A DNA stretch of 64,000 nt from Candidatus Peregrinibacteria bacterium (GTDB taxonomy: Bacteria; Patescibacteriota; Gracilibacteria; UBA1369; LOWO2-01-FULL-3): positions 2,247 through 66,246 of the forward strand of contig JBDRNZ010000027.1 in the NCBI GenBank assembly GCA_043810515.1. Direction: 5' to 3'. Of this stretch, positions 7,651 through 38,457 are shown piece after piece (position 1 is the stretch's first letter; each line of letters starts with the position of its first letter). Below the pieces are notes generated by a model. It was not told where the DNA came from. It saw nothing but the letters and a program-made list of their open reading frames with translations, and did not search any database. The position numbers and the translations under genes were made by a program.

Positions 7651-8539
7651 ATCGATGCTCCTGCGTTCCCATATTGTTCACAACGAAAGAAGCGGCGGTA
7701 TTTGCCATCTGACAGCATTTTTCCATAACTTCACCGTTTACGAATCCATGAATAAAACCGGCCCTGAAAGCGTCCCCGCATCCGGTCACGTCCACGATCT
7801 TAAGTCCCGGCACGGCTGGCACGATTTTTCTCGTGTTCCCCTGATAAATCTGGCATCCCCCCTCTCCCAGCGTTTTTATCAAAAAACCGGCTCGCTCGGC
7901 AATCTGCTCAATTGTCATATCAAGTTTTTCTTCAAGCATCTTTGCTTCGTACGTATTGGTAATAAGCCCCAGACAGCATTTTATCATCATGCTTAGATAA
8001 TCTTTTGACAGAGCGGTTATAGCCTGTCCCGGATCAAAGACATAAGGAAATTCTTTTTCAATGCATATCTGCGTAAGACTGGTCATTCTATCTGGAATAT
8101 CGGGCGCGATTATCGCCAGCTGCACCGTTTTTAGATCAAAACTGTCAAGAGTCCTGCAAAGCTCTAGATTTGCCGCCGCGCCCGGTGAAAAAATCGATAT
8201 CTGATTCTGGTTTTTGTCGTTAAGAATATAAGCCGAAGAAGTGGGTTTTTCCGGATCAATGGCAATGTATTTTGTTGAAATATCATTCTTTTTAAGCCAT
8301 TTTTTATATTTATCGAAATCATTGCCGGCCGCCCCGAAAATAAGAGGTTTTTCGCCCAGCATTTTTAAGGTATAAGCAATATTTGGCGCACATCCGCCAA
8401 AATATGTATCAACCGACTCGGTCTTGAATGAAACGCTCAAATGACGCAGATTTTCCGGAATCAAAACATTATCGAATTCTCCATCAAAAAACATGATGTT
8501 ATCGTACGCTATTGATCCGGCCACAATAATATTTTTCAT
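7604..8539 (-). CDS. PfkB-family carbohydrate/nucleoside kinase
   Basis: C-terminal PfkB signature DVTGCGDAFRAGF and N-terminal GSIAYD. Start chosen at ATG 8539 (MKNIIVAG), which gives an ATGA overlap with the upstream gene. Confidence 0.85.
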   Translation of the reverse strand: MKNIIVAGSIAYDNIMFFDGEFDNVLIPENLRHLSVSFKTESVDTYFGGCAPNIAYTLKMLGEKPLIFGAAGNDFDKYKKWLKKNDISTKYIAIDPEKPTSSAYILNDKNQNQISIFSPGAAANLELCRTLDSFDLKTVQLAIIAPDIPDRMTSLTQICIEKEFPYVFDPGQAITALSKDYLSMMIKCCLGLITNTYEAKMLEEKLDMTIEQIAERAGFLIKTLGEGGCQIYQGNTRKIVPAVPGLKIVDVTGCGDAFRAGFIHGFVNGEVMEKCCQMANTAASFVVNNMGTQEHRFTYDDFRGRLKEFYG

Positions 8540-9264
8540 AAAGACATAAAATGACTGGTTTTTACCATCTCGGCGGCCTCCATCAGGCTGTCGAAAGATT
8601 CGCCGCAATCACCCCAGAAGCCTTTCAAAATATCATATTTAAGATTGCCGGCTTTTAGATAATAATTATTGACATCCGTTATCTCCAATTCGTTTCTGGA
8701 AGAAGGCTTAAGCTCTCTTATAATATCGAAAACCCGGGAGTCATACATATAGCACCCTACAACGGCAAGATCGGATGGAGGGGACTGCGGTTTTTCCACA
8801 ATAGACAAAATCTCACCGTCCTTAACTTCGGCAACACCGTACGACTGTGGATTTTTCACGGATTTAAGGAAGATCCTCGCGCCGTTTTCCTGCGCCTCAA
8901 AACTTTTTACGGCTCCTGAAATATCATCCCCAATAATATTATCACCCAGAATTACGGTTATTTTTTCACCTGCGGCAAAAGTTTCCGCAAGCCCGAGAGC
9001 CTGAGCTATTCCACCGGCCTCTTCCTGAACTTCATAAGAAATTTTCATCCCGAATCCAGCTCCCGAGCCTAAAAGCTCAAGAAAATCACCCGCATGCCCT
9101 TTTCCGGACACAATTAAAACGGTGGTTATGCCTGACTGCTTGAGCGAAAGCAGAGGATAATAAATCATCGGTTTGTTGTAAACCGGCAAAAGATGCTTGT
9201 TTGTGACTTTTGTTAGCGGATGAAGCCTGCTTCCCGTTCCACCCGCCAGAATAATACCTTTCAT
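8536..9264 (-). CDS. rfbA: Sugar-1-phosphate nucleotidyltransferase (short glucose-1-phosphate thymidylyltransferase-like)
   Basis: MKGIILAGGTGSRLHPLTKVTNKHLLPV (GGxGxRLxPLT signature), 242 aa. Confidence 0.8.
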   Translation of the reverse strand: MKGIILAGGTGSRLHPLTKVTNKHLLPVYNKPMIYYPLLSLKQSGITTVLIVSGKGHAGDFLELLGSGAGFGMKISYEVQEEAGGIAQALGLAETFAAGEKITVILGDNIIGDDISGAVKSFEAQENGARIFLKSVKNPQSYGVAEVKDGEILSIVEKPQSPPSDLAVVGCYMYDSRVFDIIRELKPSSRNELEITDVNNYYLKAGNLKYDILKGFWGDCGESFDSLMEAAEMVKTSHFMSL

Positions 9265-9296
9265 ATGTTATATTAAACGGTAAATCCGCCTCAATA

Positions 9297-10142
9297 TCAA
9301 ACTAAAAAGTTAAGCCTTAGATAAGCCTCGAGAGCTTCTTCCCATGATCGTAAAGGCTCCGTAATTTTTGTATTTAGAAGAATGGAGCATTTTGGGCGTT
9401 TTGCTTTTTGTGGAAAAGCATCGGATGAAATCTTGTTTATTTTTACATCGGACTCCATAATTTTAAAAATCTTAACCGCGAAATCATACCAGCTTGTCTG
9501 TCCCGAATTTGTAAGATGATAAATTCCAAAAGGAAGTTTTTTTGAAAGAAAATATTTTACGCAGGCTTCGCACAGGTCTTTGGTATAGGTCGGACAGCCC
9601 GTCTGATCACCTACTACGTTCGGTTCGTACTTTTTTCGCGCCAGCCGGATCATTGTATCTACAAAATTTTTGCCGTTCTCACCGAAAAGCCACGAAGTCC
9701 TGACGATATAATAATCGTTCATGTTCTCGGAAATCCTTTTTTCGCCCTCGAGTTTTGATTCTCCGTAAATATTAATGGGGGAGGGCGAATCGGTTTCTTT
9801 GTAGCCGCGGTCATTTTTACCGTCAAACACATAATCCGTGCTGAAATGAAGAAGCGTGGCATTTTTTCCGGCACAAAGCCTGGCAATTTCCCCCGGCGCT
9901 TCGCCATTTACCTTAAAAGCGGCATCTTTATCGGATTCGCAGCTGTCTACGGCAGTATAAGCCGCACAGTTGATCACAAAATGAGGCGAAATTCTCTCGA
10001 AAACTTTTTCGAGAGTTTCTTTATCGGTTATATCAAGTCCGTCCTTTTTAAGTGAGTACATTTCAGCGTCTTTCTGCCCTGCAAGACATTTAAAAAAACA
10101 TGATCCAAGCATCCCTGATTGACCCAAAAGTAAAATTTTCAA
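9297..10142 (-). CDS. rfbD: dTDP-4-dehydrorhamnose reductase (RmlD family)
   Basis: GQSGMLG Rossmann motif, STDYVFDG and YGESK. The start is TTG at 10142, because the Rossmann motif needs those residues. Confidence 0.85.
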   Translation of the reverse strand: MKILLLGQSGMLGSCFFKCLAGQKDAEMYSLKKDGLDITDKETLEKVFERISPHFVINCAAYTAVDSCESDKDAAFKVNGEAPGEIARLCAGKNATLLHFSTDYVFDGKNDRGYKETDSPSPINIYGESKLEGEKRISENMNDYYIVRTSWLFGENGKNFVDTMIRLARKKYEPNVVGDQTGCPTYTKDLCEACVKYFLSKKLPFGIYHLTNSGQTSWYDFAVKIFKIMESDVKINKISSDAFPQKAKRPKCSILLNTKITEPLRSWEEALEAYLRLNFLV

Positions 10143-10143
10143 A

Positions 10144-11853
10144 TTAACCCTGCTTTAAAAATTTCTTAATCTTCGCGCCTAAGTCCGAAAACTTCACGAT
10201 TTCCGCTTTGTCACTAATTCTTTCCTTCCATTCCGCGCCGTCTTTTTCGAGCGTCCTGCCGCTTATAACAATTCTTAAAGGAACGCCAATAAGATCGGAA
10301 TCCTTGAATTTTACGCCGGGGCTTTCATCACGATCGTCATAAAGAACATCAATACATTCTTTTTGCAGTTCAGCATACAATTCATCGGCTTTTTTTGTGA
10401 CTTTATCATCATTTCCAAGAGTCACAATATGAATTTGGTAAGGCGCGACTGTCACCGGCCATATAATACCGTTATCGTCGTGGCTCGCTTCAACAACCGT
10501 TCCAAGAAGCCTTGTGTTTCCGATTCCATAGCATCCCATAACGGCGGATTTCAGTTTTCCGTCCTTATCTGCGAATTTAAAGCCAAACGCGTCGCTGAAT
10601 TTCGTGCCGAGTTTGAAAATATTTCCGACCTCGACAGCCTTCAGCTCCTTCAGAGGTTTGCCACATTTTACACACGAAAACCCGCTTTTTACTTCCACCA
10701 GATCCGTAAAATCCTTCACGATAAAATCCCGTCCGATATTTACATTTACATAATCCTTCGCGTATTCGTTGGCGCCGGTTACGAAATTTTTCACATTTTT
10801 TATGGAATGATCCGCAATAAAAGAAACATTAACACTATCCGGCATATTCACAGGGGAAATATATCCCTGCACGAGCCCCGCTTTTTTTAAACTCTCCGGA
10901 GACGCGGGCCTCAGACGTTTTTTTAAATATTTTTCCAGTTTAACCTCGCTGATATTCAGATCGCCGCGTATCAAAACGCCGAGAAGCCCCCCCTCTTCAA
11001 TTTCATAAACAACAGTTTTTAAAATTTTACTTTCCGGAACTTTATGGGCTTTCGCATTATCCTCAACCGAAAAACCTCTCTCAATATCGACTTCTTTGAG
11101 AGGAAGCTCATTTTCCTCTTTTAAATCAGGATCAACAACTTTTCCTTCCGCAATTTCAAGATTTTGCGCGGTATGACAATTTTCACAGATGATAATGGTA
11201 TCTTCGCCGTAAGGTGTTACGACTGAAAATTCATGAGAAAATTTATCGCTAAAAGCTCCACCGGAAGCCTCTATAATATGAGCTTCAAGACCACACCGCG
11301 TAAAAACATTCAGATAAGCCTGTTTTACTTTTTCGTAATATTCATCAAGATCGTCTTCCGACGCGTGAAAGCTGTACATATCTTTCATACCGAACTCGCG
11401 TCCGCGTAAAATACCGGATTTCGCGCGAGGCTCGTTTCTGAATTTGGTCTGGATCTGATAAACGCTCAAAGGCAGGTCCTTATAGGATTTAACATTATTG
11501 CCGACAAGCGGAGTCACAACTTCTTCGTGGCTTGGCCCCAAAACAAATTTCTTACTTCCGGCCTCTGTGCGATACAGCACTCCGTCCATCGTGCGGTTCC
11601 GGCCTGTTTTTTCCCAGAGCTCAAGAGGATGAAGCACAGGCATTATTATTTCCTGCCCTCCGACGGTGTCCATTTCCTCTCTTATAATATTGTCGATTTT
11701 ATGCATAACTCTGCGCCCAAGCGGAAGAATGCTGTAAATCCCAGCTGCCACCATTTCTATAAAACCGGCCTGCGTAAGCAGTTTTGCATTAATGCTTTTG
11801 GCGTCCACCGGCGCATTGTGCCGCGTTTTTCCGAAAAGTTTTGAATATCGCAT
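10144..11853 (-). CDS. proS: Prolyl-tRNA synthetase (bacterial type with an editing insertion)
   Basis: 569 aa. Class II motifs (FRNEPRAKSGILRGREF, GCYGIG) and a C-terminal anticodon-binding domain. Confidence 0.93.
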   Translation of the reverse strand: MRYSKLFGKTRHNAPVDAKSINAKLLTQAGFIEMVAAGIYSILPLGRRVMHKIDNIIREEMDTVGGQEIIMPVLHPLELWEKTGRNRTMDGVLYRTEAGSKKFVLGPSHEEVVTPLVGNNVKSYKDLPLSVYQIQTKFRNEPRAKSGILRGREFGMKDMYSFHASEDDLDEYYEKVKQAYLNVFTRCGLEAHIIEASGGAFSDKFSHEFSVVTPYGEDTIIICENCHTAQNLEIAEGKVVDPDLKEENELPLKEVDIERGFSVEDNAKAHKVPESKILKTVVYEIEEGGLLGVLIRGDLNISEVKLEKYLKKRLRPASPESLKKAGLVQGYISPVNMPDSVNVSFIADHSIKNVKNFVTGANEYAKDYVNVNIGRDFIVKDFTDLVEVKSGFSCVKCGKPLKELKAVEVGNIFKLGTKFSDAFGFKFADKDGKLKSAVMGCYGIGNTRLLGTVVEASHDDNGIIWPVTVAPYQIHIVTLGNDDKVTKKADELYAELQKECIDVLYDDRDESPGVKFKDSDLIGVPLRIVISGRTLEKDGAEWKERISDKAEIVKFSDLGAKIKKFLKQG

Positions 11854-28894: not shown

Positions 28895-28970
28895 GCCCGA
28901 GTAGCTCAGGGGATAGAGCAGCGCCCTTCTAAGGCGAAGGTCACAGGTTCAAATCCTGTCTCGGGTACCA
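28895..28970 (+). tRNA. tRNA-Arg (anticodon TCT), CCA encoded
   Basis: 76-nt cloverleaf folded by hand: acceptor GCCCGAG/CTCGGGT (G1.U72 wobble), D arm GCTC/GAGC, anticodon stem GCGCC/GGCGA, loop CTTCTAA, T arm ACAGG-TTCAAAT-CCTGT, then ACCA. Confidence 0.9.
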
Positions 28971-30465
28971 AAATCTGACTTTTCGGAATTTTTCCTTCCA
29001 TTTTTTGGGCGAATTGAAAGGCTTGCCACTCTGTATTTGGCTTTTTTAAACCATTTTCGGGCTGGCTAATTTGCACCCTTTTCTCGGCGAGACGGAGGTT
29101 CGAGCCAAAGATTTCTTTGGCAAGCGCTTTTTTAGGGAAAAGCGCTTCATCCCTTGCGATTTTCGGCGCATTCTGCGCCGTATTTATCCATTCCCTGAAC
29201 GGTTCGAGCCAATCATTCTGCTTTTGTTCAAGATTGATGATTTGTTCTTCCAGCGTCTTCTTTTTGCTCATCAGTTCTGCTTTTCTGACTCTGTATTCCT
29301 CACGGTCAATATCCTGCTCAAGATATACATCCATAAGCCGCTGGATTTGCATGCCGATTTTATGAATTTTCTTTTGTGCCTCTTGAACAAAAGCAGAGCA
29401 GGATTGGGCGGACTGTTTTTCATCATTTTGTGCCATTTTTAAAAGATCTTCCGCCCAATCCTGTGGCAAAGAAACTTTTTGAATAAGAGCCGAAAGCTGT
29501 TTGTCTAATTCTTCTTCACGCACATAGGGTTGAGTGCAGTTGATGGTCTTGGATTTCTTGGTACAGCGATAATAGGTATGTCCTTTCTGCACCTCAGCCG
29601 TTATCATCATGTCGCACTCACTGCATGAGAATAGTCCGCAAAACGCTTTCGGCTCATTTTTCGATTGTTTTCGCGGTTTGCCTCTTTCTTTTAGCACTTC
29701 CTGTACACGATCAAAAAGTTTCTTTGCTATGATTGGCTCGTGTTTGCCTTCATGCAGTTCTCCTGTATAGCGGAAATGTCCGTAATAGAAAGGATTTTTA
29801 AGGATAAATGTGATTCTGTCTTTGTGGATTCTCTTTCCGTTACGGGATAGGACTCCTTTTTGCGCCAAAAAGTCGGAAATATCTTCAAGTCGAGCGTTGC
29901 CCTGTGCGTAAAACTCAAATGCATCTTTGATGATTTTTGATTTCTTCTTATCAACTACAATGGTTTTGTTTCGAACATCATTTATATACCCGATCGGGGC
30001 AACGCTGGGATATTCTCCACGTCGCACTTTTTGGCGCAAACCTCGCTTCGTATTTTCGGAAAGAGAATCCACATAATATTTGCTTTGCCCAAATGCAATA
30101 TTGAGCATGAATTTTCCCTGTGGTGTCGACTCAAACCAGAATTGTGGAAATTTCAATGCTTCAATACGCCCGCAATCAATAAGATAGATTATTTTCCCAC
30201 CGTCCACAGAATTGCGCGCAAGTCTATCGGGATGCCACGCCAAAATTCCGGCCGCCTCGTTGTTTTCAACTCTTTTTAGCATTTCGTTGAAGATAGGGCG
30301 GCCTGGAATTTTGGCGGATTGTTTCTCGATAAAGACTTCTGCAATAGACAAGTTTTCTTGTTTTGCGAATGTGCGCAATTCTGTGATCTGCGCATCAATA
30401 CTCAAAACCTGCTTATCTTCCACATCAGTGGACTTGCGGGCATACAAAAAGAATTTTTGCTGCAT
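28906..30465 (-). CDS. Large serine recombinase (resolvase domain + recombinase domain + zinc ribbon + coiled coil)
   Basis: FFLYARKSTD...DAQ catalytic Ser motif, DRLARN, Cys cluster CGLFSCSECD...YYRCTKK..INC and a long coiled coil. ATG at 30465. The last ~65 codons run through IR-A and into the tRNA gene, with the stop TGA at 28906-28908 in the D arm. Confidence 0.9.
   Translation of the reverse strand: MQQKFFLYARKSTDVEDKQVLSIDAQITELRTFAKQENLSIAEVFIEKQSAKIPGRPIFNEMLKRVENNEAAGILAWHPDRLARNSVDGGKIIYLIDCGRIEALKFPQFWFESTPQGKFMLNIAFGQSKYYVDSLSENTKRGLRQKVRRGEYPSVAPIGYINDVRNKTIVVDKKKSKIIKDAFEFYAQGNARLEDISDFLAQKGVLSRNGKRIHKDRITFILKNPFYYGHFRYTGELHEGKHEPIIAKKLFDRVQEVLKERGKPRKQSKNEPKAFCGLFSCSECDMMITAEVQKGHTYYRCTKKSKTINCTQPYVREEELDKQLSALIQKVSLPQDWAEDLLKMAQNDEKQSAQSCSAFVQEAQKKIHKIGMQIQRLMDVYLEQDIDREEYRVRKAELMSKKKTLEEQIINLEQKQNDWLEPFREWINTAQNAPKIARDEALFPKKALAKEIFGSNLRLAEKRVQISQPENGLKKPNTEWQAFQFAQKMEGKIPKSQILVPETGFEPVTFALEGRCSIP
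28965..29099. repeat. IR-A, left copy (135 bp)
   Basis: Reverse complement of 30735-30869 with 7 mismatches and no indels (hand alignment). Confidence 0.95.
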
Positions 30466-30604
30466 ATTCTTGAGGTTAGTGAATAGAAAATTTAAATGAC
30501 CGTCTTGGTGCAACCAACTCAGGAGAAAACCTCAAGAATTGTCCAAGACGGCCATTTAAAAAGGTTTTCTCGCCTGTGTAGTTGGTTGCACCACTATTTT
30601 ACCA
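30466..30604 (-). promoter_or_regulatory. Recombinase promoter (extended -10 TGgTAAAAT on the minus strand, 30604-30596) and a ~125-nt leader with interleaved, mutually exclusive helices
   Basis: Complementary pairs are A 30491-30508 / A' 30543-30560 (17 of 18), B 30507-30531 / B' 30563-30592, and C 30466-30477 / C' 30528-30539 (12 of 12). C abuts the ATG. Confidence 0.5.
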
Positions 30605-30734
30605 AAATTCAAACAAAATCAAAAATTCTTTTTGTTGGGCAAAGCAAACAATAGGCTGCCCGAAGTTATTTATATTTTAAATTGGTTTTCGGACAGCCTG
30701 CAAGACAGAATCACAAAATCGCAAGGGATGTCGC

Positions 30735-30869
30735 ACCTCCGTCTCGCCGAGAAAAGGGCGCAAATTAGCCAGCCCGAAAATGGCTTAAATAAGCCGAATA
30801 CAGAGTGGCAAGCCTTGCAATTCGCCCGAAAAATGGAAGGAAAAATTCCGAAAAGTCAGATTTTGGTGC
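30735..30869. repeat. IR-A, right copy (inverted)
   Basis: See the left copy. It carries the same open frame (LRLAEKR.QISQPENGL.KPNTEWQA.QFA.KMEGKIPKSQILV) on the plus strand. Confidence 0.95.
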
Positions 30870-31221
30870 AGTTATATGACACTGCTCGAACATATTTTAG
30901 AGGAACTGGGGGCTAGCCTCCAGTGAAAATTCTAAAAAACGAACGAGGGTAGGTGCGCGGTGAAGCCTGGCACCGCGCACCTGAGAAATGAGGATCTAAA
31001 AACGCGCCGCCCGAGGTTCGGGGGCGGGCGGCGCGAATAAAACACTGTCCAAATTCCAAAGTTTGATAGGGAGGGCAGGCAAAAATTCATTATTGAAAGT
31101 TATACAAAACTTTAATACAAAACTTTAATACAATGGGAAAATAAGATAAACTATAAAATAGATAGTCTGCGTAAGTGTTTTGACGGAAGGAACCACTATA
31201 TGGTTTTGAAAAAGTGAAAGA
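30865..31221. repeat. IR-B, left copy (357 bp)
   Basis: Reverse complement of 36242-36584, roughly 90% identity by hand alignment. It differs by several indels, including a 13-nt tandem duplication (acaaaactttaat, 31104-31129) found only here. Contains GC-rich hairpins at 30951-30982 and 31003-31035. Confidence 0.9.
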
Positions 31222-31301
31222 AGAAGCTGAATGGAATATTATAGAAAGATTACCTATTATATCTATTATTTGGTCGATTATTGTTCACACAATTACAATT
31301 A

Positions 31302-31958
31302 TTAATCATTTACAATTACTAAATCAGCATTCCTTAATTGCTGATTTATCCATTGTTTCTCTGCTGGTTTAATAACACTATCAAACCATATTCGTAAAGT
31401 CGATGGATCCTCATCCCTTTCCAATACATCTCTATTGTATTTTCTTTGCCACCTTATTTCTTCTGGGATATTTAAAAAAACCGAAAAAAGCTTAAGTCTC
31501 ATAGATTGAACAGTATCTAATATTTCTGGATGCATTGCATAAAGACCTTCCACTATTAATGGAGTTTTTTGAAGTCTTAAATGTGCCCATCCGTTTTGCC
31601 TTGAAAGTTCATGTGAAAAAATTGGGATTCTTGCTATTTTTTTTCTAAAAATATCTTGTAAAGTTTCTATTAAAACATTCCAATTATAACAATCTGGTGA
31701 GTCCCATTGTCTAATATTAAGTTCTGGTAAAACCAGCTCCATTTCATCTTCATTCTTGAAGTAATTATCAAGGGATAAAAGAGAAACTCCTAATTCTTCC
31801 GAGATCATTTTAGATATTGTACTTTTGCCACTACCAGTTGGACCAGAAATTAAAAGAAGATCCGGCATTTCCTTCTGGCACACCTTGGTAATATGCTCAA
31901 AAGCCAATGATTCTGAGACAACACTCATAGTACTTTCCATGTTAGCTACTATTGACAA
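31302..31958 (-). CDS. Uridine kinase / phosphoribulokinase-family P-loop nucleoside kinase
   Basis: ISGPTGSGKSTIS Walker A, LSLDNYF, DSPD and IVEGLYA spacing as in Udk. The track start at 31958 is TTG; the first ATG is at 31940. Confidence 0.75.
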   Translation of the reverse strand: MSIVANMESTMSVVSESLAFEHITKVCQKEMPDLLLISGPTGSGKSTISKMISEELGVSLLSLDNYFKNEDEMELVLPELNIRQWDSPDCYNWNVLIETLQDIFRKKIARIPIFSHELSRQNGWAHLRLQKTPLIVEGLYAMHPEILDTVQSMRLKLFSVFLNIPEEIRWQRKYNRDVLERDEDPSTLRIWFDSVIKPAEKQWINQQLRNADLVIVND

Positions 31959-32029
31959 TTTACGCTAGATTCGGTAGACTTTTCAAGCAAATAATTGTAT
32001 AATATTTCAATTCTTCATTTTTTTAAAAA

Positions 32030-33202
32030 ATGCTTACCTACAAAAAACTGGGGTCTGATGCTGATAAAGACGCTGTTCACGAGGCGACAAAGGGGTTAGA
32101 CAAGGGGCTTTTCCCTGGGGCTTTCTGCTTCATTGCCCCTGATATTGCTGACAATGATTCATATTGTTGCCTTAAGCATACAGATGGAGCGGGAAGTAAG
32201 GCGAATGTGGCATATATGGCAACAAAAGAAGGGTTTAGTAGTGATGTGTGGAAAGGAATTGCTCATGATAGCCTAGTTATGAATATTGATGATATGGCAG
32301 CGGTTGGTGCTACTGAAAATTTTCAGTTAACTAACTGTATCGACAGAAATCCGTTTATTATTTCTGATGAAGCAGTATCAAAAATTATTGAAGGATATAG
32401 GGAATCCATCGACAATCTTTCTGGTTACACAAAAATTGATATGTGTGGCGGAGAAACTGCAGATACTGGCAATAATGTGCGTACTGTAGTTGTTAATTCT
32501 GACGCTTATGCTCGAATGAAAAGAGAAGATGTAATAGATGCAAGTAGAACCAGTGTCGGAGATGTTTTGGTTGGATTCTCGTCATACGGACAATCCAAGT
32601 ACGAAGACAAATACAATTCGGGGGTTAGTAGTAATGGTTTTACTCTGTTGACTCATGCCATGCTAGACTCATCATATAAAGCAAGATATCCGGAAACTTA
32701 TGATGAAAATATATCGGAAAGTGCATATTCTGGAGAATTTAATTTGAAAACAAAAATTCCTGGTACAGATATGACATTAGGAGAGGCGATGCTTTCTCCA
32801 ACTCGTTCGTACTTGCCACTCATAAAAGCATTATTGGCAAATAATAATAATGGAATAAAAGGAATTTTTAATTGTACGGGAGGAGGGCTAACAAAACCAA
32901 TAAGATTTGGTAAAGATGTAAAGTATGTAATGGATGGCATGATTGATCCTGGTCCATTTTTTAGGTTTGTATACGAGAATTCAGATATTGAACCACATGA
33001 ATTGTACAAAACATTTAATATGGGATGTAGGTTAATAATTTCTTGTACAATAGAGGCTGTTAATGGAATTCTCAAAAGCGCTGCCGATTTTGAGATTGAA
33101 GCAAAGGTAATTGGACGAGTTGAGCAATCATTAAAAGAAGGCATTAATGAAATTGAAATAACAGATCCTCTTAGTGATGAGGTTCTTAAATATGAAAAAT
33201 AA
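32030..33202 (+). CDS. PurM/AIR-synthase-family ATP-dependent enzyme (PurM-like)
   Basis: HTDGAGSK (compare DGVGTK), NIDDMAAVGA (compare VNDL...GA) and CGGETAD (compare GGETAEMP), with N- and C-domain lengths as in PurM. Confidence 0.75.
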   Translation: MLTYKKLGSDADKDAVHEATKGLDKGLFPGAFCFIAPDIADNDSYCCLKHTDGAGSKANVAYMATKEGFSSDVWKGIAHDSLVMNIDDMAAVGATENFQLTNCIDRNPFIISDEAVSKIIEGYRESIDNLSGYTKIDMCGGETADTGNNVRTVVVNSDAYARMKREDVIDASRTSVGDVLVGFSSYGQSKYEDKYNSGVSSNGFTLLTHAMLDSSYKARYPETYDENISESAYSGEFNLKTKIPGTDMTLGEAMLSPTRSYLPLIKALLANNNNGIKGIFNCTGGGLTKPIRFGKDVKYVMDGMIDPGPFFRFVYENSDIEPHELYKTFNMGCRLIISCTIEAVNGILKSAADFEIEAKVIGRVEQSLKEGINEIEITDPLSDEVLKYEK

Positions 33203-33205
33203 TCT

Positions 33206-33826
33206 ATGACAAAAATAAAAATTGCACTTCCAAAAGGAAGGTTTTATGATAGGAGCATGGCAATTATTGCAAGAACTACCAATAGAGATTTTTGTGATAT
33301 CAAGAAGAGTAAAAAATTAGTTTTTGAATCTGAAGATTATACTTTCTTCTTATTAAAATCATCGGATATTTGTAAATTTATCTTTGATAAGAAAATTGAT
33401 ATCGGAATTGTTCCTGATGAATGGATTTTAGAATATGAATTGCAGCACAAGGTAACGTTTGATAAGCTAAAAAGGATTGAGTGGGTACATACTAGAATTA
33501 GCTTAATTTCTAAGTCTGCAAATACTATCGGCAATAATGATGTCATTGCTTCCTCTTACCCCTTTATTGTCCTTAATTATTTAGAGCAAAAGGTTCAAAT
33601 TAATAATCATCCCGATATAAAAATCTATAAACTCAATGGGTCAATTGAAGCAACTATTCCTAAAATTTTTGCATTTGGCATAGATTGTGTTGAATCGGGG
33701 AAAACTATTTCTTGTAACGACTTAGTTGAATTAGACATTATTCATGACAATTTGTCCCTATCACTTATCAAAAAAAACGGGAGCAATCTCAATTTCCATC
33801 AAATTAATAATCTATACTTAGACTAA
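33206..33826 (+). CDS. Short-form HisG-like ATP phosphoribosyltransferase
   Basis: MTKIKIALPKGRFYDRS..., ...IDIGIVPDEWILE..., ...KLNGSIEA...GIDCVESGKTISCNDL aligns by eye along the whole length with ~205-aa HisG(S) proteins. Confidence 0.7.
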   Translation: MTKIKIALPKGRFYDRSMAIIARTTNRDFCDIKKSKKLVFESEDYTFFLLKSSDICKFIFDKKIDIGIVPDEWILEYELQHKVTFDKLKRIEWVHTRISLISKSANTIGNNDVIASSYPFIVLNYLEQKVQINNHPDIKIYKLNGSIEATIPKIFAFGIDCVESGKTISCNDLVELDIIHDNLSLSLIKKNGSNLNFHQINNLYLD

Positions 33827-34446
33827 TGCTACTTACATCACTTGCAAATACTAGCCCCATACTCAGAATAGATCTGTTAATGAACAATAAGGATTTGACC
33901 ACTTTAAGTGGCTTATGCCCCTTATCAGATATTGAGAAAAATAATATTGAATCAAAGAAGGTTGTGCCTAGGACTATTCGCAACATATTATTTGCGATGA
34001 ATGTTTTGGATGAATTATTTACAGAAATTACTGGTTTTAAAAGACATATATACATATTGGGTGATGGAACCATATGGAATTTTCTTGCAAAAAATATCTT
34101 GTATAAAGATATCAATAATATTGATAAATCTTATTATCTAGAAATTATGTGCACATTGGGGTTATCATATCGTTTTAATGTGGCAAAAAAATTTGGTTAT
34201 AGTGATACTAAGGTAATGCAATTGAGACTAAACGGATGGGGTAGAGCTTATTGTTTTAGTGAAGAAAATATTGATGATTATCAGAAATTAAAAGAAGATA
34301 TGTATAAATATTGGCTTCCGGTAATTTCTAAATATAAAAGTGAATACACTGACTTAGTTATGATGTGTGACAGCACTGAAAGACCTTTGGAGGTGGAAAA
34401 AATTCATAAGATTAATGAGATTTTACCCATTAAATTGGTTACATAA
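33826..34446 (+). CDS. Hypothetical protein (206 aa), no recognisable motif
   Basis: TAATG overlap with the HisG-like gene. Its operon position supports a real CDS. Confidence 0.6.
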   Translation: MLLTSLANTSPILRIDLLMNNKDLTTLSGLCPLSDIEKNNIESKKVVPRTIRNILFAMNVLDELFTEITGFKRHIYILGDGTIWNFLAKNILYKDINNIDKSYYLEIMCTLGLSYRFNVAKKFGYSDTKVMQLRLNGWGRAYCFSEENIDDYQKLKEDMYKYWLPVISKYKSEYTDLVMMCDSTERPLEVEKIHKINEILPIKLVT

Positions 34447-34455
34447 TAAACTCTA

Positions 34456-35157
34456 ATGAACAATAAATATATTATTATCACTGGAGCCTCATCAGGCATT
34501 GGAAAATCGGTTGCTATACAGGCTGCGAAAAAAGGCTTTAATCTAATTTTATCCGGAAGAAATTCTGTGAATTTAGACACTACTGCTAAATCTTGCAAAG
34601 ATTATAGTGTTGAAGTTATTACTGTTTGTGGCGACATTACAAATCGTTTAAATCGGGAGAAAATTATAAATATCGCAAAAGATAATAAAGATATTTTTGG
34701 GCTTGTAAATGCAGCAGGTGTTGGAAAATTTGGTGATCCTGCTGAGTTGACTGATGACATGCTGGATGAAATGTTCAACATAAATGTAAAAGCAATGTTT
34801 AGTTTAAGTAGAGAAGTAATAAAAATTAAACACAAAAAGAGTTTTCTTAATATAATTAATATTAGTTCAGATTGCGATCAAGTTGCCTTTCCAGATGCAA
34901 CTGGATATTGTGCGACAAAGGGAGGTGTTTTGATGATGTCTAAGGCATTTGGATTAGCGGTTAGAAAACAAAATGTAAGAGTTACATGTATATCTCCTGG
35001 TAGAGTTGATACCCATTTTAATAATAAGAAGCCTGGAATGAGGGTAGGGGCGTTGATGCCAGAGGAAGTTGCGGAAGTTGTTATGTTTGCCATTAATGCA
35101 CATAAAAATATTGAACTTCAAGAAATACGAATCGATAGTATGTCTAGAACTTGGTAA
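34456..35157 (+). CDS. Short-chain dehydrogenase/reductase (classical SDR)
   Basis: TGASSGIGKS cofactor motif, NISS and the YCATKGG catalytic YxxxK. Confidence 0.88.
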   Translation: MNNKYIIITGASSGIGKSVAIQAAKKGFNLILSGRNSVNLDTTAKSCKDYSVEVITVCGDITNRLNREKIINIAKDNKDIFGLVNAAGVGKFGDPAELTDDMLDEMFNINVKAMFSLSREVIKIKHKKSFLNIINISSDCDQVAFPDATGYCATKGGVLMMSKAFGLAVRKQNVRVTCISPGRVDTHFNNKKPGMRVGALMPEEVAEVVMFAINAHKNIELQEIRIDSMSRTW

Positions 35158-35167
35158 ATATTCTTTC

Positions 35168-35818
35168 ATGAAATCTGTTATTTTTGATCTTGATGGCACA
35201 CTAGTAGATTCGCAACACTTGCAGTTTTTGGCTTATAAGAAAGCTTTTAGTGAAATAGAATTACCGTTAAGCTGGGATGATTGGAAAGATTATTGGGTTA
35301 AGTTTTCAATAAACGCTTATGAATGGGCGTCTATTAAAAATCTGACTTACAATGTGGAAGCCATAAGAAAAAGAAAAAAAGAAATATACGAAAGGCTTAT
35401 TAAAAGTGAATTAGAAGCTAAACCTGGTGCAATTTCTTTAGTTAATGAATTACGGAAAAACGGATTCCAATTAGCTGTGGCGTCTTCCTCTAGAATAGAG
35501 TCAATAAAGCTTATTGTTGATATGCTTTTTGATAACACTTTTGATGTTTTAGAATCTGATACTGAATTAAACAGAAGAAAGCCTCATCATGAAGTTTTTT
35601 CTATAACCATGGAAAAAATGAATACGTCTCCATCTGAAACAGTTATTATTGAAGATTCAATTAGTGGTTATAATGCCGCTATAAATTCAGGCGCAAGATG
35701 TATTATTTGTCCAGATAGCACTATTGGTGATAAACATGATTTCCCAAAGGCTCAAATGGTTGTATCTTCATTGGAAGAGTTAAGCTCAGAAGATATTGCA
35801 AAATTACTGAATAAATAA
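35168..35818 (+). CDS. HAD-IA family phosphatase (beta-phosphoglucomutase-like)
   Basis: MKSVIFDLDGTLVDS (DxDxT), AVASSS, K...EDSISGYNAAINSG. Start taken at ATG 35168, not the overlapping 35069. Confidence 0.85.
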   Translation: MKSVIFDLDGTLVDSQHLQFLAYKKAFSEIELPLSWDDWKDYWVKFSINAYEWASIKNLTYNVEAIRKRKKEIYERLIKSELEAKPGAISLVNELRKNGFQLAVASSSRIESIKLIVDMLFDNTFDVLESDTELNRRKPHHEVFSITMEKMNTSPSETVIIEDSISGYNAAINSGARCIICPDSTIGDKHDFPKAQMVVSSLEELSSEDIAKLLNK

Positions 35819-36223
35819 CTCTCTTAGTTCTTTTTGTTTTACTAAGTTTTCAACGGGTAGGAATAATTTTTTGGGTAATTTTGCGTAATTAAACCATTTC
35901 CATTCTAGGCACTTGTTAGGCTCCCTGTTCTCGATCATCCCTTTTTTAATTTGTGCCACAATAAAAACAGTTATATATTGCTTATCTTCTTTTTTGAAAT
36001 AATCATTGGTTACATGAAATGGCTTTGGACTACAGCTTATTAGAACTCCTAACTCTTCTTTTATTTCACGTATAGCACAATCGTGAAAAGATTCCCCCCA
36101 TTCAATATGTCCACCAGGCATCCCCCAAGTACCACCGCCATGAGATCCCTTTCTTAAACCTAATAAGATATTATCTTTATCGATCAGAATAACCGAAACC
36201 CCTGTGCTTGGTCTTTTCTCCAT
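35804..36223 (-). CDS. Nudix hydrolase
   Basis: Nudix box GGHIEWGESFHDCAIREIKEELGV. Convergent 15-nt overlap with the HAD gene. Confidence 0.88.
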   Translation of the reverse strand: MEKRPSTGVSVILIDKDNILLGLRKGSHGGGTWGMPGGHIEWGESFHDCAIREIKEELGVLISCSPKPFHVTNDYFKKEDKQYITVFIVAQIKKGMIENREPNKCLEWKWFNYAKLPKKLFLPVENLVKQKELRELFIQ

Positions 36224-36241
36224 AAAATAAAATTAATTACA

Positions 36242-36584
36242 TCTTTCACTTTTTCAAAACCATATAGTGGTTCCCTTCATCAAAACACTCATACAGACTA
36301 TCTATTTTATAGTTTATCTTATTTTTCCATTGTATTAAAGTTTTTGTACAACTTCCAATGTTGAATTTTGCCTGCCCGCCCTCTCAGACCTTGGAATTTG
36401 GACAGTGTTTTTATTCGCGCCGCCCGCCCCCGCCTCGGGCGACGCGGTTTTAGATCCTCATTTCTCAGGTGCGCGGTGCCAGGCTTCACCGCGCACCTAC
36501 CCACGTTCGTTTTTTAGAATTTTTACTGGAGGCTAACCTCCAGTTCCTCTAAAATATGTTCGAGCAGTGTCATATAACTGTACC
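36242..36584. repeat. IR-B, right copy (343 bp, inverted)
   Basis: See the left copy. Its hairpins are at 36467-36498 and 36416-36446. Confidence 0.9.
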
Positions 36585-36591
36585 ATTTTGA

Positions 36592-38457
36592 TTATTGCGT
36601 AACAAGCATCAGCTTGTAAATTGCGTAAGCCACTTCGCCGCGGGTCATTCCGTTTTCAGGATGAAGTTCTTTTATGTTTGAATCGATAATCCCAAGTTGT
36701 TTGGCATATGCAACATACGGAGCGAACCAGGCATCTTTGGAAACATCAGAAAAAGGAGCAGCTGTAACATTCGGATTTACATCAACCCCCATTCCGTTAA
36801 ATAAGATTTTATAGAATTCAGCCTTATTAACGGTATTCGTCGGTCTGAAAGTTCCATCGGGATAACCATCCACGACACCTTTGTTGTATGCGGTATATAG
36901 ATATTTACCATACCATTCGGAAACCGAAACATCAGGAAACGGGATGTTTCCGCTGGAAAGGATTTCCTTTATTCCTTCGAAAATAAATTTCAAAGCCTCG
37001 ACTCTGCTCACAACCTGATCCGGCCTGAAAGTACCATCGCTGTAACCATTCACAATCCCTTCACTGGCAAGATATGAAATTGCCGCGAAATAAAGACTGT
37101 TTTCCGGGACATCTGAAAAAGAAACCTGCACTTCAGGCGCTTCTATTTCAAACCACCCGGAATAAAAAACTTTATCTTCCGTTTTTAGGGCAAGTTTGTC
37201 ACGTCCGGCATCCATGCGGACAAATTTTCCATTAAGTCTGCCGGAAGAATCAAAATTTCTGTTGGTAATAATCGATGGACTGGCAGTTACATGACTATTT
37301 AGAGAACTGATAGTCATTTCACCGGCGGCACCTCCGTCAAAAGTATTCCCATACTGATCAATCATAAATATACTGAAATCTGATTCCTGTCCCACATAGT
37401 ATTTTGGACGAACATCGATTTTAAAAGTGAGAACAGGTGGCGCCAAAACCTCTTCGGGTTCCGTAACGTCAATAACCTCTGTAATTTCAGTGGAATCCGT
37501 CTCAGCGAAAGTTTCCGTAACTTCTCCGGAATCAGCTAGCGTAACCGTCTCGTCGGTAACATAAGATGAAGCGGTTATGGAATCGGACACTATGGTTCCA
37601 TCCATATACTTCTGAACATATTTCAAAGGATTGATCGTTGTAGCCATGGCCTTTTCCTTCCCAAGACCGGCATTTACAGCCGTGAAGAAATCAAGACCGG
37701 CATCCGAAGCTTCCTGCCACGTAAACGGCCAGAAAGGATGCCATGGTGCGTCAGTAGTATCTATCTGAAAATGCACATGCGGAGTAGTAGCCGTGCCGGT
37801 TTGTCCGGAAAGGGCTATTTGTTCGCCTTTTTTTACAACATCACCCTCCGAAACAAAAATATCGCTCAAATGGTTATATGACGAAAAAAGAGTCACGCTT
37901 TTATTGGGATCCTCCAGAGAAGGGAAATTTGTATGCTGAACAACAACATGATGCCCAAAACCTGAACTTTGATTTGAAACTTTCACAACAGTTCCGTTTG
38001 CAATTGAATAAACAGGAGTGCCCATCGGAACTTTTATATCAACGGCAAGATGTGATCCTCCATATTCGAGCCCGTCCAGCTTATAACTTCCCATATATGG
38101 GACAGAGTAGGTAATTTTGGAGTTTCGTATAAGATCATCATTTGAATCACCCCATTTTAGGTTGTCCGTACTGATTTTTAAGACATCGGGGTCATAAAAC
38201 GGAATATCGATAAGATCATCAGCGCTTAATGCACCGTAACTTAAATTCCATTTTGAGGAATCAAGATGAACCCAGTCAGGCACTTTCTGAACCGGATAAA
38301 CAGTTCCGTCGAAAGGCTCGTGTTCCGGATAAGAAATAATACTTGTAGTCAAAAAGTGCGAAAAATCTCCGGTGACCTGCGCAAAAAGTGACGCAACCGA
38401 CACCACGAGAAGCAAAACGCCGGCTTTTAGACCATGTTTATGACAGAATTTATGCAT
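36592..38457 (-). CDS. Secreted M23 peptidase with three C-terminal SLH (S-layer homology) repeats
   Basis: Signal-like N-terminus after ATG 38457, and M23 motifs HLAVDI and TTPHVHFQI. SLH repeats begin FSDVPENSLYFAAISYLASEGIVNGYSDGTFRP, FPDVSVSEWYGKY...GYPDGTFRP and FSDVSKDAWFAPY. Confidence 0.85.
   Translation of the reverse strand: MHKFCHKHGLKAGVLLLVVSVASLFAQVTGDFSHFLTTSIISYPEHEPFDGTVYPVQKVPDWVHLDSSKWNLSYGALSADDLIDIPFYDPDVLKISTDNLKWGDSNDDLIRNSKITYSVPYMGSYKLDGLEYGGSHLAVDIKVPMGTPVYSIANGTVVKVSNQSSGFGHHVVVQHTNFPSLEDPNKSVTLFSSYNHLSDIFVSEGDVVKKGEQIALSGQTGTATTPHVHFQIDTTDAPWHPFWPFTWQEASDAGLDFFTAVNAGLGKEKAMATTINPLKYVQKYMDGTIVSDSITASSYVTDETVTLADSGEVTETFAETDSTEITEVIDVTEPEEVLAPPVLTFKIDVRPKYYVGQESDFSIFMIDQYGNTFDGGAAGEMTISSLNSHVTASPSIITNRNFDSSGRLNGKFVRMDAGRDKLALKTEDKVFYSGWFEIEAPEVQVSFSDVPENSLYFAAISYLASEGIVNGYSDGTFRPDQVVSRVEALKFIFEGIKEILSSGNIPFPDVSVSEWYGKYLYTAYNKGVVDGYPDGTFRPTNTVNKAEFYKILFNGMGVDVNPNVTAAPFSDVSKDAWFAPYVAYAKQLGIIDSNIKELHPENGMTRGEVAYAIYKLMLVTQ

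Follow-up and report, generated by a model that had tools for sequence, protein, structure and literature searches.

The window analysed here, a 64,000-nt stretch of the Candidatus Peregrinibacteria contig JBDRNZ010000027.1, contains three related crossover sites and two long pairs of inverted repeats arranged around a single gene for a large serine recombinase (LSR), a three-site, two-repeat structure that is far beyond chance. The explanation that is favoured here is that positions 28971-36585 are a 7.6-kb LSR genomic island, integrated at the extreme 3' end of a tRNA-Arg(TCT) gene, and that its internal, inverted site (site 2) is an old second attP region, composed of a P arm, the core and a P' arm (~490 bp in the window) and dating from the common ancestor of the family; taken as a whole, this is considered probable, with a good deal of room left for error. 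Such an inverted internal copy of the attachment (att) site is a conserved hallmark, apparently undescribed before, of a large family of islands in bacteria of the candidate phyla radiation (CPR). Full-text literature searches, in which absence is no proof, brought up neither an LSR element that conserves an internal attP in inverted orientation nor LSR islands targeting the CCA end of tRNA genes in CPR bacteria. The features on which the argument is built, in window positions, are the following.

28895-28970, plus strand: tRNA-Arg(TCT) gene, the integration target, which provides the B arm (ARAGORN; Rfam tRNA, 67 bits)
28945-28995, plus strand: site 1, attL (B-O-P'), with the core GTACCA at 28965-28970
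28906-30465, minus strand: LSR gene (Pfam), with its ATG at 30465
28967-29103: arm a of the first inverted repeat (IR-A), a P' arm, formed by the poorly conserved C-terminal tail of the recombinase open reading frame (ORF)
30731-30867: arm b of IR-A, a P' arm, the inverted copy upstream of the recombinase promoter
30851-30880, minus strand: site 2, an attP-type site (P-O-P') in inverted orientation, with the core GCACCA
30864-31221: arm b of the second inverted repeat (IR-B), the P arm of site 2
36242-36585: arm a of IR-B, the P arm of attR
36558-36600, plus strand: site 3, attR (P-O-B'), with the core GTACCA at 36580-36585

The features stated in the initial annotation were all found at the positions given there or within 2 nt of them, and its letters for the three sites are correct but for one g left out of site 1 (ctcggg, written as ctcgg). 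Sites 1 and 3 have the core GTACCA in common, and the core of site 2 reads TGGTGC on the plus strand (30864-30869). The B' arm of site 3 is the 3' end of a convergent M23/SLH gene, whose stop codon (36592-36594) lies 6 nt beyond the ACCA of the site. Repeat finding and self-BLAST of the window agree on IR-A (137 nt, 7 mismatches, 94.9% identity, E 5e-57), which brackets the recombinase gene, and self-BLAST likewise recovers IR-B (359 aligned columns, 89.4% identity, 4 gaps, E 1e-134), which brackets the 5-kb cargo; the two repeats meet at site 2, where they overlap by 4 nt (TGGT = ACCA). No further copies of IR-A, IR-B, the recombinase or a P-like site were found within the 64 kb. A composite made of the site 3 P arm and the site 1 P' arm is colinear with site 2 over 492 columns, with 45 differences that include a 12-nt indel, so that the earlier description of site 2 as the left arm of site 3 joined to the right arm of site 1 holds and the attP-like site extends to a full P-O-P' site.

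Since the arms of both repeats have diverged, the structure is not an assembly collapse. Inverted repeats do confuse short-read assemblies, and most of the related contigs end in the arms, which is what could be said for a chimeric join of integrated and circular forms or for a fold-back contig. Such an artefact is nevertheless hardly credible: the 45 differing columns, with their indel, mean that each copy is backed by its own reads, the upstream copy has a unique junction (a 45-nt deletion), and dozens of independent assemblies, for which more than one assembler was used, show this layout again.

Joining the outer arms of sites 1 and 3 predicts an empty site in which the tRNA, ending in ACCA, is followed by TTTTGATTATTGCG. 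When the M23/SLH protein was used for a synteny search, 21 related loci came up, and 20 of them (L083-L102) were analysed, their best matching segments being 42-71% identical; as far as their contigs extend, they keep the order HD protein, TsaE, M23/SLH, tRNA-Arg(tct), CAAX protease, PH protein and RuvB. In two of them, L086 and L087, the CCA end of tRNA-Arg lies 4 nt from the M23/SLH stop, and the sequence past the tRNA (ACCA followed by TTTATTTCATCG...CATCAGCTTGTA...) is homologous to the window sequence after site 3, whereas 41 nt separate the tRNA-Arg CCA from that stop in L084. From the empty arrangement in L086 and L087 it follows that sites 1 and 3 are the attL and attR of a 7.6-kb insertion at a tRNA 3' end, in agreement with the attL-like and attR-like nature first assigned to them, and the predicted empty site has thereby found its counterpart in syntenic relatives. 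Ten further relatives carry 0.9-4 kb of unrelated DNA, without recombinase, between tRNA-Arg(tct) and M23/SLH, which marks this tRNA-Arg end as an insertion hotspot. In L092, L099 and L101 it is the tRNA-Arg gene itself that is inverted relative to its neighbours, and no att remnants are visible in the flanks of these inverted genes.

The recombinase (519 aa) is an LSR, as annotated, with the domains Resolvase (PF00239, 3.7e-21), Recombinase (PF07508, 5.6e-17) and Zn_ribbon_recom (PF13408, 3.7e-8), all three above their gathering scores, and inspection of its sequence reveals an N-terminal YARKST motif with the presumed catalytic Ser. The conserved part of the protein ends near ...EIFGSNL, and the ORF then stays open through the att core up to its first stop at 28906, in the antisense of the tRNA, which is why arm a of IR-A is the tail of the ORF. 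Its best solved relative is the A118 integrase (E 8e-7), its identity to phage or plasmid LSRs is at most 29%, and its best NCBIfam similarities, to CcrB, XisF and CcrA/C, are all below cutoff (112 bits for CcrB, with a cutoff of 900). It has more than 7,900 database homologues, the best of them 92% identical and the second, from Candidatus Peregrinibacteria GW2011_GWF2_43_17, 87% identical; both lie at the 3' end of a tRNA-Leu(taa) gene and have an inverted copy of the recombinase tail upstream, within which their contigs end. No relatives of the recombinase were found in IMG/VR viral contigs, so that a prophage reading of the island has nothing in its favour; the cargo contains no phage genes.

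How general is this layout? A scan of one genome per species yielded 80 distinct loci, nearly all in metagenome-assembled genomes of Patescibacteria, with recombinases 56-87% identical to that of the window. In 67 of the 80 the 3' end of a tRNA gene, from ~26 tRNA species in all, abuts the 3' end of the recombinase gene through an attL-type junction (tRNA ...NCCA, then the P' arm). IR-A is present in 62 of the 65 loci that can be assessed (median 114 nt, range 61-186), 15 of the 18 loci without it having contigs that end too soon, and 23 of the 49 complete pairs are 100% identical. The arrangement is thus not peculiar to this island but standard in a large CPR recombinase family. Upstream sequence beyond site 2 exceeds 600 nt in 23 loci, and 12 of these show IR-B (123-200 nt, mostly 98-100% identical); in these 12 relatives it starts at the att core, adjoins the recombinase module, encloses 1.6-9 kb and ends P-O-B', and the reconstruction of site 2 as an attP from the arms of attR and attL holds as it does in the window. 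A further 19 contigs break off 48-55, 121-124 or 135-137 nt past site 2; these lengths equal k-1, less the core, for k values of 55, 127 and 141, which would be expected of a P arm that is a repeat beginning at the core. One and the same recombinase (P0021) occurs in 14 contigs that have a single shared context and so carry no evidence of mobility.

The cargo is unrelated between islands and, by inspection only, comprises restriction-modification-like genes, HydE/F/G-like radical-SAM genes, ArsR with a permease, membrane proteins and a 1,202-aa protein. At least 5 of the 12 islands have, at the cargo end proximal to the recombinase and divergent from it, a small XRE-family helix-turn-helix (HTH) gene with Pfam HTH matches, which is absent from the window and is a candidate for a regulator or a directionality factor. 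It was located as follows.

L007, 9354-9623: XRE gene
L013, 1514-1762: XRE gene
L054, 9280-9597: XRE gene
L063, 3810-4025: XRE gene
L081, 9304-9525: XRE gene

This recurrence bears on the alternative that had been named as the refutation of a three-site element, namely that the segment bounded by IR-B is an independent terminal inverted repeat (TIR) transposon with an ATTTT target duplication, the similarity of the three sites being coincidental. ATTTT does stand just outside both ends of IR-B in the window, but the left one is the reverse complement of the start of P' and the right one is the start of B', and a flanking direct repeat was present in 0 of 9 related islands examined. Furthermore, there is no transposase in the segment and no other copy of it in the window, and in the 12 relatives IR-B always lies at the att core, beside the recombinase module, around unrelated cargo, all of which makes the transposon very improbable.

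A second regularity concerns what the recombinase may recognise. Site 2 has, just outside IR-A, a conserved motif GT[TCG]CG, usually GTTCGAGC, which is also the form carried by the P arm of the window; its distance from the outer boundary of IR-A is modally 23 nt (28 of the 39 loci having the motif), and that of the tRNA T-loop motif at site 1 is modally 19 nt (32 of 49). In the window, the T-loop GGTTCAA of tRNA-Arg(TCT) lies ~19 nt before the crossover. The A118/LI integrase structures (Rutherford and Van Duyne, 2013) are reported to predict such an outward shift, by 4-5 bp, of the outer zinc-ribbon motif of attP with respect to that of attB, and the P arm therefore resembles a P-type mimic of the tRNA arm. 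What the three sites of an island have in common shrinks from CCACCA to CAC (L013), TAC (L079) and TA (L081), which places the staggered cut probably at N72-A73 (the last base of the acceptor stem and the discriminator), just before CCA, or else at A73-C74. Several attR sites read CA followed by CAAA, from which it appears that their target genes do not encode CCA and that the element supplies it. In the window, N72, a base that the comparison within the family puts inside or beside the crossover dinucleotide, is T in sites 1 and 3 and C in site 2; with a cut at 72-73, this would leave site 2 currently unable to exchange with its neighbours.

Is site 2, then, still a site in any functional sense? 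The upstream copy, in the window as well as in ten inspected relatives, extends from the core as far as GGTTCG, skips ~45 nt, which in the recombinase gene hold two hairpins, and resumes for ~15 nt, the resumed block being the reverse complement of the KIARD codons (~30712-30727 in the window), and this ~45-nt deletion is common to L001, L004, L007, L013, L020, L052, L081 and others. That only a trimmed piece of the 3' end of the recombinase gene makes up the upstream copy, that the arms have diverged in the window and in ~15 other elements and that no function of site 2 has been demonstrated would all suit a functionless relic, in which site 2 and its arms stem from an old inverted duplication and stay similar only through occasional homologous gene conversion. 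Such a relic is nonetheless quite unlikely, given that the structure is retained in nearly all assessable loci of a family whose recombinases have diverged as far as stated above, and that the 45-nt indel persists though its flanks have been homogenised. Within an element the two copies co-vary, and between elements they differ, which implies some concerted evolution. Finally, ~80 bp around the window core are far better conserved than the rest of the arms: from -45 to +35 there is 1 difference, against ~9 expected from the rest of the arms, and from -45 to +40 there are 2 (Poisson P ~0.006), which suggests that both copies are still constrained as putative protein-binding sites. A model in the manner of long terminal repeats, with arms identical at insertion and ageing afterwards, was rejected, as the identities of IR-A and IR-B are uncorrelated (94% and 100% in L079, 100% and 94% in L081).

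The farthest-reaching proposal of the initial annotation was that both modules are independently invertible, sites 1 and 2 flipping the recombinase module and sites 2 and 3 the cargo, with four isomers as the outcome. Each module is indeed bounded by inverted sites with a common core, the arms are often 100% identical in relatives, the tRNA is found beside the 5' side of the recombinase in L057, L061, L070, L073 and L076, with the L073 contig entering tRNA-Phe sequence at both ends of the module, and the nearest named recombinases (Ccr, below cutoff) act in both directions and are not known to have a directionality factor. An active double inversion switch is nevertheless unlikely and has nothing that supports it directly. 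In 67 loci it is the 3' end of the recombinase gene that faces the tRNA, as against 7 with the opposite orientation, and the 15 loci whose arms are diverged and therefore unambiguous all belong to the majority. In the five loci just named, the arms are identical as far as visible and the contigs end within an arm, so that the opposite orientation may be the choice of the assembler; it is unambiguous only in L022 and L042, both of them rearranged loci. The XRE gene always sits at the recombinase-proximal end of the cargo, also in islands with diverged IR-B arms. Characterised LSRs (the phiC31, Bxb1 and A118 integrases) do not recombine attP with attL or attR. In the window copy, where the arms have drifted by 5% and 11% and site 2 has C for T in its core, module flipping is probably not occurring now.

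This does not make the att core a silent place in evolution, as several relatives with hybrid arms illustrate. In L028 (900-5200), site 2 is a hybrid with a type-II P arm and a type-I P' arm, and at the distal end of the cargo an intact type-II attP is followed by ~100 nt of P' arm and then by the host gene hsp20; from its sequence, this locus looks like two elements fused by attP x attP recombination with a later deletion. In L022 (9750-11589), the recombinase module, whose arms have 82% identity, is flanked by a tRNA-Val and a tRNA-Leu gene that converge on it, which in its arrangement is the product that would be expected from recombination of site 2, as an attP, with a second tRNA attB. 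P and P' similarities are also discordant in some pairs of elements, which have the P arm in common and differ in the P' arm, or vice versa, and the identities of IR-A and IR-B, uncorrelated within elements as noted above, likewise speak for some use of site 2. Hybrid arms such as those of L028 and L022 suggest occasional exchange at the core on evolutionary time scales. The L042 locus (8480-10563) contains a full tRNA-Val gene, then, ahead of the upstream arm, two fragments of tRNA 3' ends in tandem, and, past the first recombinase tail, a second, convergent one; it is, like L022, a complex rearrangement at these elements.

Returning to the favoured reading of an island with a spare attP, the following course of events can be proposed. 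The second attP would have begun as an inverted duplication including the 3' end of the recombinase gene, with the ~45-nt deletion coming later. The free form would be a circle with two inverted attP regions that split the segment of the recombinase from that of the cargo, and the island would integrate by attP x attB recombination at the CCA end of a tRNA gene. In attB the recombinase would read the T-loop motif of the tRNA (GGTTCGA/GGTTCAA), and in attP its mimic GTTCGAGC, 4 nt further from the crossover, an offset between attB and attP as is typical of LSR zinc-ribbon sites. Integration through one attP would leave the other one intact as site 2. By the canonical rules of LSRs, this retained attP would be inert towards attL and attR; it could still bind the recombinase, and it could react with another attB or, rarely, with a site of another element, such reactions letting recombinase and cargo modules reassort between elements. 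The function that keeps the spare attP could be a second integration option, a point of cassette exchange or a site that regulates or sequesters the recombinase. A bolder version, which can be entertained only tentatively, is that the inverted attP makes two recombinase-addressable cassettes, invertible or swappable between elements in a natural form of recombinase-mediated cassette exchange, or that a circle with two attP sites isomerises in the manner of the 2-micron plasmid. The cassette exchange would require an LSR able to recombine attP with attL, attR or attP, i.e., outside the attP x attB rule, and under either version the recombinase would read a generic T-loop/CCA signature, which would make almost any tRNA gene usable.

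Several observations weigh against the reading proposed here and have to be set beside it. An exact-pattern scan of JGI metagenomes for the empty site of the window's own strain gave 0 matches, so that the predicted site is borne out by relatives and not by the strain itself, and neither a circular junction nor an excision product was found. No gene resembling a recombination directionality factor was recognised in the island. L025, L046 and L065 truly do without IR-A despite enough upstream sequence, and where arms are 100% identical, as in many contigs, the merging of bubbles during assembly may have exaggerated the identity. The placement of the cut at 72-73 comes from one locus, L081, with an arm 94% identical, and the dinucleotide is not pinned down by it; if that arm has mutated, the cut could be A73-C74. 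The five loci with the tRNA beside the 5' side of the recombinase also count here, as the opposite orientation could result from integration via either attP or from inversion in situ. That site 2 drives inversion is unproven, and what function it may have is deduced from the patterns described above.

Among known systems, the island stands closest to LSR elements (A118, Bxb1, phiC31, TP901-1, SPbeta, and LSR-bearing integrative and conjugative or integrative and mobilisable elements). It has their three-domain recombinase, attL and attR with a common core of a few nucleotides and an empty attB in relatives, and a reconstructable, quasi-palindromic attP of ~50 bp, whose outer motif lies 4 nt further from the centre than that of attB, as reported for the A118/LI model. 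It differs from them in its choice of target, the CCA end of many different tRNA genes, where tyrosine integrases would normally be expected, in a recombinase ORF that crosses the att core, in the second intact inverted attP region kept by the family, with arms of 114-350 bp, and in a recombinase so distant from phage and plasmid LSRs, with no relatives in IMG/VR and no directionality factor identified. Tyrosine-integrase islands at tRNA genes (P4-like islands and tycheposons) are likewise small islands of variable cargo at the 3' ends of tRNA genes, at hotspot loci, but their recombinases belong to another superfamily, their crossover lies in the anticodon or T-arm and not at the discriminator/CCA, and the duplicated 3' segment of the tRNA has no equivalent in the window island.

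Staphylococcal cassette chromosome elements (SCCmec and composite SCC, with CcrAB or CcrC) resemble the family in that they, too, are small islands with cargo, inserted where a conserved gene with an RNA-related role ends, and in the sub-cutoff similarity of their recombinases to the one studied here, and composite SCC elements also have three att-type sites. Nevertheless, the internal site of SCC is a direct repeat, which makes partial excision possible, whereas that of the island is inverted; their target is rlmH and not a tRNA gene, and the CcrB score remains far below its cutoff. The small invertases Hin, Gin, Cin and Pin (e.g., the P1 C segment with its 0.6-kb inverted repeats) offer the precedent of a serine recombinase gene beside or inside a segment with inverted sites in longer repeats. 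They are, however, ~190-aa proteins with a C-terminal HTH and a Fis enhancer, in contrast to the LSR of ~500 aa (519 aa in the window), and the sites of the island are att-type hybrids (attL, attP and attR) that differ at the core instead of being identical and create no alternative gene fusions; orientation in the family is, moreover, strongly biased. The inferred circle also recalls the yeast 2-micron plasmid (Flp/FRT), in that two inverted repeats bearing the targets (599 bp in the plasmid) would split it into two unique segments, one of them encoding the recombinase, but Flp is a tyrosine recombinase and 2-micron a replicating eukaryotic plasmid, whereas the island is integrated, lacks replication genes and has not been observed as a circle. 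As for TIR transposons, the island has, as said, no transposase, a single copy in the window and no duplication in the 9 related islands.

Due to these properties, the family may be of interest beyond this single locus. The mobile elements of Patescibacteria have barely been described so far, and a very large recombinase family is now defined in them, with more than 7,900 homologues and 80 loci over many lineages, in which serine recombinases target tRNA CCA ends through an apparent T-loop mimic and carry restriction-modification-like and metabolic cargo. If the spare attP were active, it would break the textbook rule of serine-integrase directionality and explain the shuffling of cargo in CPR bacteria; if it were only bound, it would be a feature of regulation or architecture not seen before. 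As tools for genome engineering, serine integrases are of interest as well when their targets are simple, portable and tRNA-like.

The recombinase gene has two further conserved features. One is a motif at the inner end of IR-A (29097-29106), GGTTCGAGCC on the plus strand or GGCTCGAAC on the other, the latter corresponding to the codons G-S-N of EIFGSNL. GGCTCGAAC is exact in 73 of the 80 recombinase genes, synonymous positions included, is the reverse complement of the P-arm motif and is found nowhere else in the recombinase genes. Beside it (window 29104-29147) the coding sequence contains two hairpins, GCCAAAGAAATCTTTGGC and GCGCTTTT..AAAAGCGC, both present in the relatives inspected, the first with a compensatory change in L073, and both missing from the upstream IR-A copy in the window and the ten relatives inspected. 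The exact motif together with the hairpins suggests a DNA-level or RNA-level role within the coding sequence. A second, cryptic att site at the inner GGTTCGAGCC motif was also considered and dropped, since the dinucleotide at the expected distance is not conserved.

The other feature lies in front of the gene.

30470-30590, minus strand: conserved pseudoknotted leader, between a promoter-like block (~30590-30650) and the ATG (alignment A1, 25 loci)

In this alignment the helices of the leader follow the order A1-B1-C1-B2-A2-C2, 93.4% of the cells of helices A and C are paired, and 14 pairs are changed on both sides, in comparison with at most 5 in slid controls and with 0 of 500 shuffles reaching this number. 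The leader, which has no counterpart in some subfamilies (L007, L012, L013, L026, L029 and L060), may be a translational control element of the recombinase; in a scan of Rfam, only the tRNA scored and no family was returned for the leader. The idea that a promoter in the P arm drives the recombinase through the upstream arm, which would give an mRNA with complementary 5' and 3' ends, was rejected: GTATAAT in the P arm is not kept from one subfamily to the next, no promoter was called in the window, and the conserved promoter-like block sits between the upstream arm and the leader.

The cargo of the window island is made up as follows.

31222-36241: cargo segment, ~31% GC as against ~41% in the flanks
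31302-31958, minus strand: uridine-kinase-like protein
32030-33202: PurM/AIRS-like protein
33206-33826: HisG-like protein
33826-34446: unknown protein, 206 aa
34456-35157: SDR protein
35168-35818: HAD phosphatase
35804-36223, minus strand: NUDIX protein

The annotated cargo proteins all score below the NCBIfam equivalog cutoffs, and PADLOC recognised no defence system in the cargo. This low-GC cluster, foreign in its base composition and made of divergent genes reminiscent of nucleotide metabolism, could make or modify a nucleoside-type compound.

Two observations on the repeats complete the description. The 94-aa ORF at 30632-30916 (plus strand) crosses IR-A arm b and site 2 into IR-B, and encodes the tail peptide of the recombinase once more, followed by QLYDTARTYFRGTGG; it is the C-terminus that the recombinase would have if its gene abutted the P arm instead of the tRNA, and it is probably no true gene. 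The P arms themselves contain a GC-rich stem with a C-rich loop (window 31003-31035 and 36416-36446; CGCGCCGCCCG / CCCCCGAACCT / CGGGCGGCGCG in the window and GGGCGGGCAAAAATTCCTTCCCCCCAACCCCCTTCCTTTTTGCCCGCCC in relatives), a hairpin that is present in most related loci with stems that differ by subfamily and a retained loop motif, so that, because of IR-B, each island holds two C-rich-loop hairpins, one on either side of its cargo.

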